DNA of 64,000 bases from a virus. The notes beneath the pieces were generated by a model, which worked only from the letters and a program-made list of their open reading frames with translations, did no database searches and was not told the origin of the DNA. The translations under genes were made by a program, and so were the position numbers. The DNA is taken from the IMG/VR virus record IMGVR_UViG_3300042375_000684. One strand, 5' to 3'. Each line of letters starts with the position of its first letter. The first letter of the stretch is position 1. Positions 24,494-31,114 of this stretch are shown one piece after another.

Positions 24494-25603
24494 TTAGTTC
24501 CTCACCAATTTAATTTTTTCACTTGCTCTTGTTACCGCAGTATAAAGCCACTTCCACCTATCATCACGGAAACACCACGACTCGTCTTGGATCAAAACAT
24601 ACGGCCATTGAGAACCTTGTGCTTTGTGAGTTGTAATTGCATATGCATAATCAAATTGTTGTGAACCCTTTAGGAGTTTCCAATCTGGTTTTGCAACATC
24701 ATCCATGAATAAACTTTTGTGAACCTTTGCCATAATCGGTGGCCGTTCTTCATCTTGTGACTCAAGTCTCATGTGCATAAAACTTGTTTTATATTTAGAA
24801 GTAAGAATTTGTTGAATGTCAAAAATCCCGCCATTGAAGATACCAAGGTCTTTATCATTCTGTAAACAAATAATCTTGTCTCCGACCACTGGTGTATCTG
24901 GATCAAGTTTCTTCAATTTACGAATTTTTCTATTCATTTCAAAACGAGTAATATTTCTTCCAACCAATAATTGATCTGCTTCTAGAACATCTTTAGAACT
25001 TATCTTTTCAACCACACTACTTTGCTCATAGTCACCATAATCTGGCATGATACCTTGCCGAACTTGAGTTGCTAGATAGATAATTGGATTGTCTTTTGCC
25101 TGGCGATGAATTTCAGTCAACATGAAGTCCGGTGTTCCGGCAGTAAAATATCCAGTGCCTGAAATAGGTGGCAACTGACCTGGATCACCTAGAACAAGAA
25201 TTGGTTTTTTAAACCACAAAAGATCCTTGGCAAGATCTTCATCAACCATGGAACATTCGTCAATAATAATCAGTTTTGCACTATTAATGAACGAACCTTT
25301 ATTTAAGTGAAAAGTCACTTCCCCTGTATTCTTATCTTGTTCTGCAAGGTAGATCATGCTGTGGATTGTTCGAGCTTCCTCACACCCATTTTTGCGCATG
25401 ACCAGTGATGCTTTACCTGTAAATGCCCCGAAAAATACGTCACCATCAATACCTTCCGCAAAATGTTTGGCCAGAGTAGTCTTACCTACACCAGCAAACC
25501 CGCCAAGATAAAAGAATGGTTTGTCGGGTCTTCTGCTAGTGTAATACTCTTGCACCCATTTATCTACGGCCTTTAAAGCCTCATTTTGTTGTGATGTCCA
25601 CAT
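24494..25603 (-). CDS. SF1B RecD/Dda-like 5'-3' DNA helicase
   Basis: GFAGVGKTT, ARTIHS, IIDECSM, GDPGQLPP, HRQ, YAITTHKAQGS, YTAVTRA; start moved to MWTSQQ. Confidence 0.9.
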   Translation of the reverse strand: MWTSQQNEALKAVDKWVQEYYTSRRPDKPFFYLGGFAGVGKTTLAKHFAEGIDGDVFFGAFTGKASLVMRKNGCEEARTIHSMIYLAEQDKNTGEVTFHLNKGSFINSAKLIIIDECSMVDEDLAKDLLWFKKPILVLGDPGQLPPISGTGYFTAGTPDFMLTEIHRQAKDNPIIYLATQVRQGIMPDYGDYEQSSVVEKISSKDVLEADQLLVGRNITRFEMNRKIRKLKKLDPDTPVVGDKIICLQNDKDLGIFNGGIFDIQQILTSKYKTSFMHMRLESQDEERPPIMAKVHKSLFMDDVAKPDWKLLKGSQQFDYAYAITTHKAQGSQWPYVLIQDESWCFRDDRWKWLYTAVTRASEKIKLVRN

Positions 25604-25661
25604 AAAATATCCTTTATAGTATAATGGTACCAATTTAACATATATATTTGATTAGTCAACT

Positions 25662-25686
25662 AAAAAAGCGACCGAAGTCGCTTTTT
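25662..25686 (-). terminator. Rho-independent terminator with C(UUCG)G tetraloop
   Basis: GCGAC-TTCG-GTCGC followed by T6. Confidence 0.9.
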
Positions 25687-25943: not shown

Positions 25944-27443
25944 TTAATACCTATCTACAATAACGTCTTCGTACTCTGCTGGTTTGAGCTCAGACCGCTC
26001 ACGAACTTGCTCGAACGTAGACTTGTTGAACAGCTCGCCGTTCAGGTATACCAGCTTCAAGAGGTTGTCTTCTGGTGTTACCATTTCCTCTGGTAGAGTT
26101 CTGTATCCGCAAGACCCCAAACCACATTGGCGTACCAGAGCAAGACGACCCTCTTTAGACTTTTTGCCGTGATCGCCAACTGGATCCTTGCTGAACCCAA
26201 CCCAAGGACCGTCAGCAATTCGAATTGCACTGGCCTTCATTGCATATTTCAGAGTATCACGATTCCATGCTTGCAACAGTCCGCCTCCCATACCAAATGC
26301 GATATTCTCTAGACTATAACCTGCCGCAATGATATTGTCAACAAGTACTTGCAGAGTATGTTCGTTCAAACCGTCACCTTGAATAACTTTGACAATAGGT
26401 GATCCGTCTGGACGTTTTGCAAGAACTTTGTAGCCCTTGCTATTGACAGTGTAGCCAAAGCATTCTGCGAGGATGTCCATGATTTCAATTGGAACGGTCA
26501 TCGGATCGCCAGAGTCAGGGCGGACGACCAAAGTGCCACCACTGTCGATCACCAAGTCTTTGAGTTGATTACCCCAAAGTTCACGAACTGCTTCGTAGAT
26601 GTTGTAACTATCAGACACGCAGGCATAGATGCTTCCCGCAAAGCTGAACTGCGTAACCATATTGCGGTATGCTTCAACCTCGTTAGCACGACCCCAGCTG
26701 GTAACGGTGCTGTGCTCACTAGCAGGAATGGTCCGAGCAACAGGAGGTGCATCCAGACTAGTAATGTCAGCATCGTAGTATGCATATGCACCAAGAATAC
26801 CTTCGACTGTATCCGACCCCCAGAAGTTAACCAAGTGACTCATACCACCAAGAACAGCACTTTCAGTTGAGCTTACACCGCGTCCACCAAAGTCGTGCAG
26901 AGCAAACTTGATCACCAAATTCATCAACACGTCAACGGGAATGTCAGAGGTTTTCACCAGAGCCTTTGCAATGATCTTCTTGAACTTACGGCTCTTGGTA
27001 GCAACAGTAGAAGGATACCAAACCCCACGCAACAGTGCCATTTCGATGTAGGAGGTCAGCCAGCCAAATCCACTCGTGGTATTTTTGACCTGCACTTGGA
27101 CGTTATGAGTTTCCATAACGGTTCCCTCTGGAACGGCAGTGATTTCGAGTGGCAAAAATCCACCAAACTCGTTGAGCACACGTTCCCAACCTTCACGATT
27201 GAAGGGAGCGCCGTATACTTTGAAGATCAGCTCAGCAAAGTTGATGTCCGCCATAGTAATTGGTGTGGTCATGTAATCCATGATCCAAGCCTGTCCACCA
27301 AAGAAGGTACTTTTGTCTTCCCCACCACGAGACTCAATATATGAGCTGATGTGAGTTGTGCCTGGCGGGTATTGTTTAAATTGGGATGGTTTGTAACCGT
27401 CAGTGCGCAGAATCGCAGTGAGTAGGTGTAGAATGTTTTTCAT
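25944..27443 (-). CDS. nadV: nicotinamide phosphoribosyltransferase (NAMPT)
   Basis: TDGYK, HDFGGRG, PASEHS, VSDSY, RPDSGD, IQGDG, FGMGGGLLQ motifs. Confidence 0.95.
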   Translation of the reverse strand: MKNILHLLTAILRTDGYKPSQFKQYPPGTTHISSYIESRGGEDKSTFFGGQAWIMDYMTTPITMADINFAELIFKVYGAPFNREGWERVLNEFGGFLPLEITAVPEGTVMETHNVQVQVKNTTSGFGWLTSYIEMALLRGVWYPSTVATKSRKFKKIIAKALVKTSDIPVDVLMNLVIKFALHDFGGRGVSSTESAVLGGMSHLVNFWGSDTVEGILGAYAYYDADITSLDAPPVARTIPASEHSTVTSWGRANEVEAYRNMVTQFSFAGSIYACVSDSYNIYEAVRELWGNQLKDLVIDSGGTLVVRPDSGDPMTVPIEIMDILAECFGYTVNSKGYKVLAKRPDGSPIVKVIQGDGLNEHTLQVLVDNIIAAGYSLENIAFGMGGGLLQAWNRDTLKYAMKASAIRIADGPWVGFSKDPVGDHGKKSKEGRLALVRQCGLGSCGYRTLPEEMVTPEDNLLKLVYLNGELFNKSTFEQVRERSELKPAEYEDVIVDRY

Positions 27444-27492
27444 AATAGAACTCCTCTATTGTTAGTGTTGTTACCAATTCTCTCTGAACTGG
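27444..27492 (-). promoter_or_regulatory. two-hairpin 5' leader, copy A (NAMPT)
   Basis: CCAGTTC-AGAGA-GAATTGG, N13, AATAGA-GGAGT-TCTATT, then ATG. Confidence 0.75.
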
Positions 27493-27537
27493 ATTTAGTT
27501 TAAATATATACTACTTTACTTGTTTGTCAACTGATTC

Positions 27538-27831
27538 TTATGCGGCTTGATCTTGGGCATCATGCCATTCTACAGTCCATTTTTGTAATTTTCTGTGGCC
27601 TTTTGGCCAATCATTCATGCCAAGGTATGTGACTTGATCACAGCATGGGCATTTAAAGCATACAGTTGGATTACAATCACATTTTTCATCAAAGTAACCT
27701 GGGCGATAGCGTAGATCATTCCAATCAATTTCAAGTAGTGCTTCGCAGCCTTCATTATCGCCACCCCAACCAGTGCAGCGATGTTGAATGGTCCATTGTT
27801 CTTTTGTTTTGCCTAGTTCAAGAATTTTCAT
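27538..27831 (-). CDS. Cys-containing hypothetical protein
   Basis: RC...C, CDC, CFKCPCC motifs; GGAG RBS. Confidence 0.6.
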   Translation of the reverse strand: MKILELGKTKEQWTIQHRCTGWGGDNEGCEALLEIDWNDLRYRPGYFDEKCDCNPTVCFKCPCCDQVTYLGMNDWPKGHRKLQKWTVEWHDAQDQAA

Positions 27832-27859
27832 AGCTTCTCCAATACTTCATCTAATTCTT

Positions 27860-28003
27860 TCAGGAAACTCCAGGCGGGATTATCGCCCGAAGTATGTTTT
27901 CATTATCAATATATAATGAAACCAAATAACCTAATTCTTGAAGTTCTCGTTTATTGGCAGAGATATTCAAGACATAATCTGATGCTGTTAGTTGTACATC
28001 CAT
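27860..28003 (-). CDS. small hypothetical protein
   Basis: MDVQLTASD..., trimmed from the track ORF that overlaps the Nudix gene. Confidence 0.45.
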   Translation of the reverse strand: MDVQLTASDYVLNISANKRELQELGYLVSLYIDNENILRAIIPPGVS

Positions 28004-28007
28004 TTGT

Positions 28008-29072
28008 TTATCCAATGTTAATGAAGTTGTCGATGATATGAAAATGATCTTCGAAGAGCTTCTCTTGTTTGACTTGGTTGAATGGAACCCAGAACGCTTT
28101 TTCAGCATCATCGGAACCTTTGACCTTTGGAAGTTCACCAACACCAAGGTCAATCAAGAATGCCTGTGTGATGGTACGACCACGAGATGAGCGGTTCGGA
28201 GCATCAAAAGTCTTGGACTCTTTGATAGAACCCTTGAGAACGGGAACAGGAACCTTGATTTTTGTTTCCTCTTTCAACTCACGGATAGCCCCATCAAGCA
28301 TAGTTTCATCTTGATTGAGGAACCCGCCAGGCAGCGCCCATAGTCCTTTTCCTGGCATGTCGCCACGTTTCACGAGAAGGATGTGACCTGACTGAATAAC
28401 AACAGAGTCAACAGTCATGAAGGTTGGTGGGAACGGCGCAGATTTCCAAGCTTCCTTGTATTTCTTGACCATATCATATTCTTTAGAAAGAGTATCCCAT
28501 GCACCGCCAATTTTGGCATTTTGCATGATAGTATTAGCCATCGCATCATATGAAGGTTTTGGCATTGCGGCAGCAATTTTACTTGGGGACCCATTTTCAC
28601 CGAACAACATCTTCCGAATATCAGTAGCATTGATACCGTTAACATCACCAACTTCGACATGGTCCTTCCAACGAGGAAAGATGTTCAAGTAGTAACTAGT
28701 ACTGTCCTTCGAATGACCGATAAGACCAACATCTTTTGCATCAGGGACGGTTTCATCAACAATCTTCTGGATCGCGTTGACCCACTTGTTGTCGTCATAT
28801 GGAAAGTCAGAGACTGGAACCACTTTGATGCGAGGTGTCTTGTTTCGACCCTGTGCACCGTCATAAGTGAAGTGCTTTGGTTCATTGAAGCAAGCTTCAA
28901 TCATAGTCTTGCGTTCTTGGAATGTAAAGGGATTTCGGATATTTCGTGCGGCAAAAGAGGAACCGACTACGATTACTACTTCTTTTGCTTGTTCTAATGC
29001 AGCATCAATAACTGCTTTGTGTCCATTGTGAAACGGTTGGAATCTTCCGATAAAAACTAGTGCATCGCGCAT
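28008..29072 (-). CDS. nadM: bifunctional NMN adenylyltransferase / Nudix ADP-ribose hydrolase (NadM-Nudix)
   Basis: GRFQPFHNGH, NPF, INATDIR; Nudix box GGFLNQDETMLDGAIRELKEET; start at MRDALV. Confidence 0.93.
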   Translation of the reverse strand: MRDALVFIGRFQPFHNGHKAVIDAALEQAKEVVIVVGSSFAARNIRNPFTFQERKTMIEACFNEPKHFTYDGAQGRNKTPRIKVVPVSDFPYDDNKWVNAIQKIVDETVPDAKDVGLIGHSKDSTSYYLNIFPRWKDHVEVGDVNGINATDIRKMLFGENGSPSKIAAAMPKPSYDAMANTIMQNAKIGGAWDTLSKEYDMVKKYKEAWKSAPFPPTFMTVDSVVIQSGHILLVKRGDMPGKGLWALPGGFLNQDETMLDGAIRELKEETKIKVPVPVLKGSIKESKTFDAPNRSSRGRTITQAFLIDLGVGELPKVKGSDDAEKAFWVPFNQVKQEKLFEDHFHIIDNFINIG

Positions 29073-29074
29073 TT

Positions 29075-29118
29075 GCAAAAACTCCTTTTGCTATATTGAG
29101 TGATCCTCTCTGGATCAC
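29075..29118 (-). promoter_or_regulatory. two-hairpin 5' leader, copy B (NMNAT-Nudix)
   Basis: GTGATCC-AGAGA-GGATCAC, N8, GCAAAA-GGAGT-TTTTGC, AA, ATG. Confidence 0.8.
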
Positions 29119-29123
29119 ATGTT

Positions 29124-29154
29124 TATTTATAATCTATAGTTGGTATTTTGTCAA
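29124..29154 (-). promoter_or_regulatory. overlapping sigma70 (TTGACA-N17-TATAAA) and T4-late (TATAAATA) promoter
   Basis: minus strand TTGACAAAATACCAACTATAGATTATAAATA. Confidence 0.6.
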
Positions 29155-29157
29155 CAA

Positions 29158-29799
29158 TTATTTACGACCAGTTGGGCAATTTCGTTCGGCACCACGTTTC
29201 TGGTATGTTTCAGCAATCGCCAATTCATGATTAATTGAGTTACCTTTCAGTGCATACACATCTTTTGAAACACTGATTTTAACAAATGTACGAATACCAG
29301 GTTGAATGTTTGTATCAACTTTATGCAAGACTCGTTGATCAAGTTTCATGAGGTTCTTATTTGCATAACGGAATTGTTTTGACGGATCAGGTTCACATAA
29401 TTGGTTCATTTCATCTAGTGAATGAACATGATCAGCAGAAAAACTGTGAAGTGAATTGTCACAGAAAAACACTGTGGGATTTTTGTCAGACCAAATGTAG
29501 TTTAGATCACCCGTCATAAAACCATCGCTGTGCCAACCAGGGCGATTGCCAGGTGTTTCGGGTTTGACATAAAGTGTTTTTGCAGTAATGTAAACATAAT
29601 CATTGTCCCATTCATCGGCACGATCAAGTTTTACTTTTTCAACTAATGGCAAGAATTGCATTAGATTTGCGGGGATTACGGTATCAGACATGCCAGGAGT
29701 TTTAATTGGACAATACATCCAAAACATCATTTCAGTAGGATCAAGTTCTACCGGACCTAAATTTTCAGGTTGGGTTCCATAAATCTTATCAGTCGTCAT
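29158..29799 (-). CDS. putative 2-oxoglutarate/Fe(II) oxygenase-like (DSBH) protein
   Basis: GWHSDG (HxD), distal LH, and RTFVKIS Arg; inferred fold. Confidence 0.6.
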   Translation of the reverse strand: MTTDKIYGTQPENLGPVELDPTEMMFWMYCPIKTPGMSDTVIPANLMQFLPLVEKVKLDRADEWDNDYVYITAKTLYVKPETPGNRPGWHSDGFMTGDLNYIWSDKNPTVFFCDNSLHSFSADHVHSLDEMNQLCEPDPSKQFRYANKNLMKLDQRVLHKVDTNIQPGIRTFVKISVSKDVYALKGNSINHELAIAETYQKRGAERNCPTGRK

Positions 29800-29802
29800 G
29801 AT

Positions 29803-29844
29803 GCAAAAACTCCTTTTGCGGTATCAATGATCCTCTCTGGATCA
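29803..29844 (-). promoter_or_regulatory. two-hairpin 5' leader, copy C (2OG-like gene)
   Basis: TGATCC-AGAGA-GGATCA, N8, GCAAAA-GGAGT-TTTTGC, ATC, ATG. Confidence 0.8.
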
Positions 29845-29992
29845 GATGCTTATTTATTAATTTGCTTTACAGATGCGAACCATCCAACGGTAAAAACCGA
29901 ATTTTCGGCTTTGACTGACTTTAGCACCTTGAGAAAGAATAAAGTCACGGTCGATATTCATCTTACGTAGAGGCATGTGTTGTTCCTTTTCA

Positions 29993-30034
29993 CCTTATAG
30001 AATCAGTATAAACTATTCAGGTGGTACTGTCAAC
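29993..30034 (-). promoter_or_regulatory. class-1 repeated early promoter
   Basis: TTGACA-N17-TATACT-GATTC-TATAAGG; drives a ~39-codon ORF and then leader C. Confidence 0.8.
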
Positions 30035-30338
30035 CCTTCTTTTCACAATCGGGATAAGTACAATGCAAATTATGTAAAGGGCAGTTACCGTTTTCATCTT
30101 TGTTTGGACATATTGACTCTGTTTCTTCTAATAGACTAATGAGTCGTTCAGCACCTGCTTTTGCATCAGCTGCCATTACATCAGGTGAATATCCAAGCAG
30201 ATATGCAGCAACCATGGCACCATAAAGGGAAGCAAGAAGATCATCAGCATCTTTACTATCTTCAAGTTGTTGCAGCCATTCCTGTAGGTGAATGGCTGCA
30301 TTATTATTGATTTTCTTTACTCGTTCATCTTCACTCAT
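30030..30338 (-). CDS. hypothetical protein with C-terminal Cys/His cluster
   Basis: CPNKDENGNCPLHNLHCTYPDC. Confidence 0.55.
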   Translation of the reverse strand: MSEDERVKKINNNAAIHLQEWLQQLEDSKDADDLLASLYGAMVAAYLLGYSPDVMAADAKAGAERLISLLEETESICPNKDENGNCPLHNLHCTYPDCEKKG

Positions 30339-31114
30339 TTCACATATCCTACTCTCTGGTCAAGTGTATAGTCACCAAAGAACACAAGATCAAGTTCTTG
30401 AATTTTAGTTCGTTTAACAAGAACATCAGCATCTGGACGTTTATGTTCTGGTATCTTCATAAGTTCTGCTTGAGTCAAATATGACTCAACAGTAACTGGC
30501 TTTGCATAAGTGCCATACTTATATTTGTTTGGAAGCTCGGCCCAATCAGTAAAATAGTCAGACTTAAGAAGTGCTTTCATTTCTTCACCTGATAGACCGT
30601 GCATCTTCGAATGACCCACAGTCCAACGAAATAGTGATGAAATACTGTTCTTTCGAGCATCTTGAACACGCCACAAAAGTACGTTTGATGCTTCGGCAAG
30701 GTCAGGAACAGCCCATGCACGGCAGTCAAAGAAAGCAGGTTTATCCATCTTTACACACTCAGAAAGAGTGGCATTAAAATGGAATGTTGCCATAGATGCA
30801 AGGATCGAGTTGATCTTTGATACTTTACCACCGAACATATATTCAGATGACTTCTCACCTGGTGTGTAGATCAATGTGATTTCGTCCGATTGTGTATACC
30901 CAATACTTGCATGAGTGTACTTGACAAGGTTCATCATAGTGTTGACCATGACACCACCAAGGATATCATCGAATGGCTTCTTGAAACCTTTTGTGAATTT
31001 ACTGAAACCTTTGCCGTCGATCCGAACACAAAGGATCTTATCAATTGGTACATAAGCTTCTGTATATTCGTGTTCGTGTGCTTTCATCCTGTCGCCAAAT
31101 TCATCGTTTTTCAT
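30335..31114 (-). CDS. thg1: tRNA(His) guanylyltransferase Thg1-like protein
   Basis: FGDRMK, RIDGKGFSKFT, YTQSDEI, FDCR, WRVQDA motifs. Confidence 0.92.
   Translation of the reverse strand: MKNDEFGDRMKAHEHEYTEAYVPIDKILCVRIDGKGFSKFTKGFKKPFDDILGGVMVNTMMNLVKYTHASIGYTQSDEITLIYTPGEKSSEYMFGGKVSKINSILASMATFHFNATLSECVKMDKPAFFDCRAWAVPDLAEASNVLLWRVQDARKNSISSLFRWTVGHSKMHGLSGEEMKALLKSDYFTDWAELPNKYKYGTYAKPVTVESYLTQAELMKIPEHKRPDADVLVKRTKIQELDLVFFGDYTLDQRVGYVK

Follow-up and report, generated by a model that had tools for sequence, protein, structure and literature searches.

How is a phage pathway for rebuilding nicotinamide adenine dinucleotide (NAD+) controlled at the level of its messenger RNA (mRNA)? 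This question is raised by three short 5' leaders in a 64,000-nucleotide (nt) stretch of IMG/VR virus record IMGVR_UViG_3300042375_000684; this stretch, hereafter the window, is part of a 115,718-bp record with an estimated completeness of 56%. Two of the leaders precede the genes for NAMPT (NadV) and NMNAT-Nudix (NadM), i.e., the enzymes of NARP2, with which phages rebuild NAD+ after NAD-depleting defence, and which is also a common salvage route in bacteria. The known controls of NAD genes are the DNA-binding repressors NadR, NiaR and NrtR and two riboswitch classes unrelated to the leader described here, and we know of no previous description of RNA-level control of NadV and NadM-Nudix expression. 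Comparison of phage and bacterial loci indicates that the window leaders are members of a widespread, apparently undescribed two-hairpin 5' leader RNA of nadM and nadV in bacteria and phages, whose most likely role is to restrain the production of these costly enzymes.

Two hairpins at the start codons of a phage NAD cluster

The genes of the NAD cluster and their leaders all lie on the minus strand, as follows (aa, amino acids; 2OG, 2-oxoglutarate):

27474..27492, minus strand: leader A, hairpin 1; 7-bp stem including one G.U pair, AGAGA loop; -6.5 kcal/mol alone, z = -4.8
27461..27473, minus strand: leader A, linker; 13 nt, A/C-rich, no G
27444..27460, minus strand: leader A, hairpin 2; 6-bp A/U-rich stem, the loop being the Shine-Dalgarno sequence GGAGU, ATG immediately after; -2.1 kcal/mol alone
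25944..27443, minus strand: NAMPT/NadV gene behind leader A; 499 aa; Pfam PF04095 (7e-47) and PF18127 (1e-17)
29100..29118, minus strand: leader B, hairpin 1; 7-bp stem, AGAGA loop; -9.3 kcal/mol, z = -4.3
29075..29091, minus strand: leader B, hairpin 2; 6-bp stem, GGAGU loop, then AA and ATG; -3.0 kcal/mol
28008..29072, minus strand: NMNAT-Nudix/NadM gene behind leader B; 354 aa from the ATG at 29072; Pfam PF01467 and PF00293
29828..29844, minus strand: leader C, hairpin 1; 6-bp stem, AGAGA loop; arms as in B, minus one pair
29803..29819, minus strand: leader C, hairpin 2; same as hairpin 2 of leader B, then AUC and ATG
29158..29799, minus strand: distant 2OG-Fe(II)-oxygenase-like gene behind leader C; 213 aa; phrog_1843

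When the window was scanned exhaustively on both strands, exactly three hairpins with an AGAGA loop and a stem of 6-7 bp were found, and exactly three with a GGAGT loop and a 6-bp stem. These are matched one to one, with a gap of 8-13 nt, and each pair stops 0-3 nt 5' of an ATG. By comparison, 300 dinucleotide-preserving shuffles of the window contained on average 0.43 hairpins of the AGAGA type and 0.26 of the GGAGT type, and no adjacent pair. No further copy was found across the whole 115,718-bp record, either by pattern search or with a covariance model of the phage leaders (R1, built with the window copies included). The first-pass annotation of this DNA had placed three minus-strand leaders of AGAGA/GGAGU architecture at these coordinates, with these sequences, and at no other gene of the window; all of this stands, and the last point extends to the complete record.

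In all three copies the Shine-Dalgarno sequence is the loop of hairpin 2, as had been noted. Hairpin 2 covers approximately position -20 to the start codon, and must therefore melt for 30S binding and initiation. When the hairpins are folded alone, hairpin 2 is weak (-2.1 to -3.0 kcal/mol) and hairpin 1 is stable (-6.5 to -9.3 kcal/mol). The hairpins of leaders B and C are identical, with the differences confined to the 8-nt linkers; because B and C are thus near-identical copies, the window holds two independent stem versions rather than three. The stems of A differ from those of B and C and yet they pair, with the previously reported G.U pair at stem position 4 of hairpin 1. The annotation had also described both loops and their closing pairs as invariant. 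This is so within the window, but not in the wider family, in which loop 1 reads A-N-N-G-A or GGAGY and loop 2 reads GGAGY, GGAUU and the like. Folding gave no evident terminator or antiterminator at the window leaders, and inspection of the leader sequences revealed no consistent complementarity for loop-loop kissing or for a pseudoknot with the tail before the AUG.

Covariation, distribution and novelty of the leader

To assess the conservation of the two stems, 26 distinct (non-redundant) phage leaders were aligned. In this alignment 96.7% of the cells are paired, versus 63.9% after shuffling, a percentage that is inflated since the leaders were partly collected by hairpin scan; the variety of pair types is not so inflated, and 113 cells show a double-sided change, versus 33 after shuffling. 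When the pairing partners were slid by 1-3 columns, 31-51% were paired. Double changes occur at all seven pairs of hairpin 1 and at four of the six pairs of hairpin 2. De novo folding of the alignment with RNAalifold recovered the same two hairpins, and added a pair between positions 1 and 5 of the hairpin 2 loop (columns 39 and 43), which is G.U in 24 rows and G-C in two. This pair would account for the near-constant pyrimidine after GGAG, which is also found at loop position 5 in about 90% of the bacterial copies. The true loop of hairpin 2 may comprise only three nucleotides (GAN), as it does in the shorter forms of KVP40 and Cronobacter phage S13 (NGG-GAG-CCN). A DNA operator was considered and rejected, since the loops are retained in the face of varying stems, G.U pairs form on the sense strand only, and the strand is set by the Shine-Dalgarno sequence and the ATG.

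The family can be described by simple rules. Hairpin 2 has a stem of 4-7 bp, its loop is the Shine-Dalgarno sequence (GGAGY, GGAUU), and it ends between -2 and +5 nt from the start codon; all three window copies, and the phage and bacterial leaders, are of this form. Hairpin 1 has a covarying stem and an A-N-N-G-A (or GGAGY) pentaloop, and lies 1-40 nt 5' of hairpin 2, as it does in the window, where the loop is AGAGA in each copy and the linkers are 8-13 nt long. Lastly, the leader lies directly before nadM-Nudix or nadV. Copies A and B are so placed, and copy C precedes a non-canonical gene.

Megablast detected no relatives of the region among cultured phages, and the closest cultured NAMPT is 52% identical. 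IMG/VR contigs whose NAMPT is 63-71% identical carry the double hairpin before both NAMPT and NMNAT-Nudix, with other stems that are still complementary; phages whose NAMPT is 39-52% identical carry hairpin 2 only, again with different stems. The loop of hairpin 1 in the phage leaders is AGAGA (20), AGUGA (7), AUAGA (3) or AAAGA (1). Across 46 loci (477 kb, both strands), GGAGU hairpins before open reading frames (ORFs) occur almost only at NAMPT and NMNAT-Nudix. An unbiased test, i.e., one not started from NAD genes, was a search of IMG/VR with the exact 17-mer of hairpin 2 of B and C. It gave 40 matches, 13 inside other sequence and 27 preceding the start of an ORF, namely 12 NadM, 4 NadV, 5 PnuC (PF04973 confirmed for two), one homolog of the 213-aa gene, two small ORFs within NAD clusters and three copies of one unrelated gene. 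The corresponding search with the exact 15-mer of hairpin 1 of copy B was discarded, all 59 matches being in unrelated coding sequence and none followed by hairpin 2. In five jumbo-phage records (283-519 kb, 85-100% complete), model R1 made ten matches with E<1e-4, every one of them before NadV, NadM, PnuC or a small ORF preceding PnuC, and within one small region per genome.

Among cultured phages, the record at locus L037 is that of coliphage RB43, at 100% identity, and we scanned the complete genome. RB43 contains 147 GGAGT sites; two are part of hairpins with 5 bp or more, and only one of these two precedes an ORF, which is NAMPT. The NMNAT-Nudix gene of RB43, 70 kb from NAMPT, has the identical stem with a GGAGC loop. 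RB43 and coliphage RB16 have the hairpin-2-only form, and Phaeobacter phage MD18 has the full two-hairpin form before both genes. An element of about 50 nt with natural compensatory variants is therefore at hand in tractable phages. Hairpin 2 stands alone in many phages (RB43, L011, L014, L027, L041, L043 and L114; L and G numbers denote loci and genomes of our collection). NMNAT-Nudix is encoded in all of five further motif-bearing phage records, and both NadM-Nudix and NadV are encoded in every motif-bearing genome checked.

Several variants were seen in these phages. In L017 (2971-3041 and 4917-4988), hairpin 1 of both leaders has the G-rich loop GGGG, and in L015 (4935-5003), as well as in alphaproteobacterial leaders, the loop of hairpin 1 is GGAGU, as in hairpin 2. 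The hairpin-2 stems of NadV and NadM are often alike within a genome and different between genomes, e.g., in RB43 (151524 and ~80380), L013, L014, L016 and L027; this likeness could mean that the leaders undergo gene conversion with each other or that they co-evolve with a reader. In L016, both loops are changed together to GGAAG. The two-hairpin leader is also found on genes for PnuC-type nicotinamide riboside/nicotinamide mononucleotide (NMN) transporters (L124:7711-8364, minus strand; L129, L135, L140, L112), on the gene of a 120-aa protein (phrog_33851; L124:8419-8778), with a weaker copy in L114, and on a 50-aa ORF just before PnuC in L140. Two weak sites, which may be due to chance, are a hairpin-2-like Shine-Dalgarno hairpin before an RNA-ligase-like gene with weak Pfam matches (L020:8464-8480) and a hairpin-2-like hairpin before a 306-aa gene with a class-I synthetase-like HIGH motif (G003:C1:94598-94640); each is near an NAD cluster, and each occurs in one phage.

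The first-pass annotation had viewed the leader as an element of phage NAD rebuilding. It is not confined to phages, being widespread also before bacterial nadM and nadV. The bacterial sample comprised the best 80 relatives of the window NAMPT, one per species, from alpha-, beta-, gamma- and epsilonproteobacteria, one cyanobacterium and one metagenome-assembled genome of a Bacillaceae, and was examined with a simple scripted two-hairpin scan using our own stem and loop rules. Both hairpins were detected before nadV in at least 60 of the 80 loci, and before 43 adjacent nadM starts. The 104 bacterial leaders have the following features:

Loop 1: AUAGA 50, GGAGU 19, GUUGA 16, AAAGA 7, ACAGA 6
Closing pair of loop 1: G-C in 93
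Loop 2: GGAGC 34, GGAUU 25, GGAGU 24, GGAGA 9
Linker: 1-40 nt

In 90 distinct bacterial copies of hairpin 1, the third to sixth pairs from the loop are 84-93% paired, versus 38-56% after shuffling, with all four Watson-Crick types represented. Model R1 recovered 12 of the bacterial nadV leaders at E<0.5 (e.g., L199 at 9e-7). Homologous loci in phages and in bacteria therefore keep the loops while the stems covary, which is what the first-pass annotation had expected of a genuine element. Its broader claim, that of a new covarying cis-regulatory RNA that marks a set of NAD-salvage genes, is strongly supported by these comparative data. The presence of the leader over the ribosome-binding site of both enzymes, across phyla and in phages, suggests that a costly pathway, one consuming phosphoribosyl pyrophosphate (PRPP), is under a shared and ancient control after transcription.

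In the bacterial sample, the motif is distributed relative to the gene order as follows:

nadM adjoining nadV, motif present: 58 loci
nadM adjoining nadV, motif not detected: 10 loci, several of them detector misses
nadM not adjoining nadV, motif present: 2 loci
nadM not adjoining nadV, motif absent: 10 loci

An even sample of 300 gammaproteobacterial genomes included 8 with NadM-Nudix and 10 with NadV; the leader is on both genes in all four genomes with an adjacent nadM-nadV operon. A bacterial covariance model of the gamma type (R2), which includes only hairpin 1 as structure because MAFFT could not structurally align hairpin 2, was run over 151 gammaproteobacterial genomes. Strong matches (34-46 bits) were obtained only at nadM and nadV of the two operon-bearing genomes, and the motif was found before no other NAD gene in these 151 genomes. 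Borderline matches (up to 25.7 bits) lie in coding sequence and lack hairpin 2, and were taken as chance.

These loop sequences bear on the notion that the leader is the site of a general host factor, i.e., a CsrA/RsmA-type protein acting on GGA loops, or a GGAG-cutting endoribonuclease like RegB of phage T4. Loop 2 always has GGA in a hairpin loop at the ribosome-binding site, which is the classical CsrA target shape, and GGAG in early phage mRNAs is the target of RegB. We nevertheless regard a host factor as highly improbable. Loop 1 mostly lacks GGA (AGAGA, AUAGA, GUUGA), so that GGA in both hairpin loops at the spacing of a dimer, as expected for CsrA/RsmA, is not seen, whether in copy A, with its AGAGA, or in the family at large, where loop 1 is mostly AUAGA. 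The motif is present in groups that mostly lack CsrA (alphaproteobacteria, betaproteobacteria and cyanobacteria), and RegB does not occur outside T4-like phages, unlike the motif, which bacteria also have. Moreover, a global factor would not explain the limitation to nadM, nadV and pnuC.

The leader appears to be new. None of the families of Rfam 15 matches the phage leaders at E up to 10 (7 kb of the window, or the 101 nt alone), or ten bacterial loci at E up to 1, and no nadV/nadM (NAMPT) RNA motif and no nicotinamide or NAD+-III riboswitch was found in the literature searched. As the first-pass annotation had stated, the leader does not resemble the NAD+-I (nadA) or NAD+-II (pnuC) riboswitches; these are likewise cis-acting RNAs before genes of NAD biosynthesis or transport, but they differ in size, structure and gene set (here nadM and nadV), and neither matches the leader in the window or in bacteria. 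A study of NrtR describes 21-bp DNA palindromes, i.e., a DNA site rather than the leader RNA. The report on NARP2 makes no mention of leaders (10.1101/2024.02.11.579819). The leader merits an Rfam entry, and could serve as a marker for NAD-salvage modules.

Copy C is a special case, in that the first-pass annotation had counted its 2OG-like gene as a third member of the regulon. In the 213-aa protein the residues HxD...H...R are invariant (50 homologs), the AlphaFold2 model has a predicted local distance difference test score (pLDDT) of 94.8, and the top Foldseek matches of the model in the PDB are nearly all 2OG-Fe(II) oxygenases or near kin (AlkB-type, JmjC), with TM scores of 0.3-0.4. At 80 homologs of the gene in other viral contigs, neither the leader nor a neighbourhood of NAD genes is present. 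Regular membership in an NAD regulon is thereby ruled out, and the leader is, by this comparison, a recent recruit onto the gene in the clade of the window phage and L114.

Candidate functions of the leader

To gain insights into how the leader might act, we considered its position in the transcript:

27503..27530, minus strand: promoter of leader A; sigma-70-like TTGACA-16-TATATT, 11/12 matches; the -10 element stops 10 nt before hairpin 1
29126..29154, minus strand: promoter of leader B, read from the sequence; sigma-70-like TTGACA-17-TATAAA; the -10 element stops 7 nt before hairpin 1
29857..29976, minus strand: 39-codon ORF directly upstream of leader C, read from the sequence; near-consensus promoter at 30005-30033, minus strand

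Since the -10 elements end 7-10 nt 5' of hairpin 1 in leaders A and B, hairpin 1 is located at, or a few nucleotides from, the predicted 5' end of the transcript. The NadM leaders of related phages have a similar layout, mostly with 3-6 nt between the -10 element and an extended hairpin 1 stem. Leader C has no promoter of its own and starts 12 nt 3' of the 39-codon ORF. It is thus intercistronic, as are the NadV leader of L010 and the leaders of bacterial nadV genes behind nadM.

This layout raises the possibility that the leader senses nothing, and is instead a constitutive cassette in which hairpin 1 stabilises the mRNA, as a 5'-terminal structure or a barrier to processing, and hairpin 2, as a structured ribosome-binding site, keeps translation at a fixed and moderate rate. 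A 5'-terminal stem-loop is an established mRNA stabiliser (as in the ompA and T7 gene 10 leaders), and in most NadM leaders of the clade strong promoters put hairpin 1 at 3-6 nt from the -10 element. As with other regulatory cassettes of phages, the unit and its promoter would spread jointly by recombination. Its mobility is apparent in the near-identity of B and C and in the recruitment onto a gene whose 80 homologs lack the leader, and hairpin 2 stems of the same genome often resemble each other (RB43, L013, L014, L027). In the same vein, the PeSL cassettes of T4-like phages are repeated short units of early promoter, stem-loop, Shine-Dalgarno sequence and start codon that are movable onto or with genes; there, however, the stem-loop lies 5' of the early promoter and is a terminator, and dozens of copies precede unrelated ORFs (PMC4122927). 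The leader hairpins, by contrast, are transcribed, lie 3' of their promoters and have conserved loops; there are three copies in 115.7 kb, and only two to four NAD-related genes per genome carry one. Stability alone does not explain why the loops are conserved across phyla while the stems change, nor does it explain the limitation to two to four genes in genomes of 100-520 kb, and many copies are intercistronic rather than 5'-terminal. A constitutive cassette is therefore rather unlikely in our assessment.

The reading that we favour, tentatively and with somewhat less than even confidence, is that the leader is an autogenous translational operator, with NadM-Nudix or NadV as its candidate readers. 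In this mechanism, a factor made by the module, i.e., NadM-Nudix or NadV, possibly with a bound metabolite of the pathway, would recognise the conserved loops and the shape of the hairpins. By stabilising hairpin 2, the bound factor would hold back translation of each leader-bearing cistron and so exert feedback on the pathway, which over-produces NAD+ at the expense of PRPP and ATP. Hairpin 1 would probably provide a second contact that adds affinity, and also shield the 5' end of the mRNA. We infer translational repression and the identity of the reader from the following features. Hairpin 2 is weak, and yet it is kept by compensatory change, which argues for a recognised shape rather than a self-sufficient mask. 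It occurs alone in many phages, which suggests an autonomous unit, as in operators of the coat-protein or gp43 type. In bacteria the motif is restricted to the nadM-nadV module, and in phages, all of them module-encoding, to NAD genes; this fits a reader that is made by the module. A reason for feedback is provided by the cost of NARP2 and its toxicity when unregulated: the pathway over-produces NAD+ and consumes PRPP, and the KVP40 operon is toxic in E. coli (10.1101/2024.02.11.579819). Of the two mechanisms put forward by the first-pass annotation, a candidate protein operator and a candidate metabolite switch, the evidence leans to the former.

Several observations weigh against an autogenous operator. 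The co-occurrence of motif and module is confounded by the common descent of the whole nadM-nadV module. Among the gammaproteobacteria sampled, the genomes with nadM only (two), with nadV only (four) and with both genes apart (two) all lack the motif; neither enzyme is thus sufficient, and the association cannot name the reader. Neither the NadM-Nudix nor the NadV family is known to bind RNA. The spread over phyla and over phages of many hosts, with conservation only at the level of the loops, would be equally consistent with a universal small ligand or the ribosome. Finally, loop 1 is varied (AUAGA, AGUGA, AGAGA, GUUGA, GGAGU), more so than would be expected of a single protein contact, unless the reader evolves along with it.

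Known operators of this kind offer partial parallels. In E. coli thrS, as in the putative operator, the leader is that of the enzyme's own gene, two hairpins are read by a dimeric enzyme, the hairpin beside the ribosome-binding site competes with the 30S subunit, and the result is feedback; thrS, however, mimics the anticodon arm of a tRNA and has its Shine-Dalgarno sequence between domains, whereas in the nadM/nadV leader the loop is the Shine-Dalgarno sequence, there is no tRNA mimicry, and the reader is putative. The operators of MS2 and Q-beta coat protein, T4/RB69 gp43 and RegA are also small, weak hairpins at the initiation region whose loop and shape are read for repression. Those are single hairpins private to one phage group, whereas the nadM/nadV leader, which goes with NAD enzymes, is found in bacteria as well as in phages of many lineages, mostly with an extra hairpin upstream. 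A third parallel is PyrR, a protein of the phosphoribosyltransferase fold that acts by transcription attenuation and whose RNA binding responds to nucleotides and PRPP, a regulatory logic related to that envisaged here. Hairpin 1 of B and C (UCC-AGAGA-GG core) nearly fits the consensus of the PyrR binding loop (RF00515). Yet the leader gave no Rfam match (E up to 10, also with the 101 nt alone), precedes non-pyr genes, and masks a ribosome-binding site instead of acting by attenuation, and its loop 1 is family-wide mostly AUAGA or GGAGU rather than AGAGA. No PF00156 (PyrR-type) domain was matched in the phage record, which is only 56% complete.

The universal small ligand alluded to above corresponds to a minimal riboswitch, in which the two hairpins would dock via their conserved loops around NAD+, NMN, nicotinamide, ADP-ribose or PRPP, such that hairpin 2 is opened or locked. 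If so, the leader would be a new minimal two-hairpin riboswitch class that directly senses a product of NAD cleavage or a metabolite of the NAD pathway, and bacteria and NARP2 phages would translate NadM, NadV and PnuC only when NAD is destroyed or short. The build is like that of guanidine-II (mini-ykkC), with tandem mini-hairpins whose loops and closing G-C pairs are conserved and whose stems covary, a linker of varying length (1-40 nt in the leader) and a hairpin over the ribosome-binding site that controls translation initiation. The range of the motif, from several phyla of bacteria to many lineages of phages, is more in keeping with a universal ligand than with a protein specific to one lineage, and each cistron has its own copy, as expected of translational switches. 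Guanidine-II, however, has ACGR tetraloops in both hairpins, and these kiss, whereas the AGAGA and GGAGU loops of the leader are unlike each other and non-complementary; it too gave no Rfam match to the leader, and hairpin 2 of the leader stands alone in many genomes. These hairpin-2-only forms (RB43 and others) are common and conserved, and a 17-nt hairpin is too small for an aptamer. There is no conserved internal loop or junction, and no other NAD gene in the 151 gammaproteobacterial genomes has the motif, whereas a riboswitch class is as a rule found at more than one gene of its pathway. We thus consider a riboswitch to be improbable, as a mechanism and likewise as a new class of metabolite sensor.

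Neighbouring genes

Between the NMNAT-Nudix and NAMPT genes lies one further ORF:

27538..27831, minus strand: 97-aa Cys-rich ORF; without leader, not part of the motif

This ORF has no Pfam or PHROG match. Cys-rich homologs of about 100 aa are present between the same two genes in L008 (4600-4908) and L010 (4634-4948); in L007 the site is taken by a different small ORF that ends in a CPIC motif. The Cys-rich protein was considered as a reader of the leader and rejected, given that it is found only in some relatives and cannot account for the bacterial motif. The NAD cluster is flanked by a gene for a Thg1-like tRNA-His guanylyltransferase (30335-31114, minus strand) and one for a RecD/UvrD-like helicase (24494-25633, minus strand). 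At 25663-25686, a 10-bp GC-rich hairpin between A and T runs resembles a bidirectional terminator.

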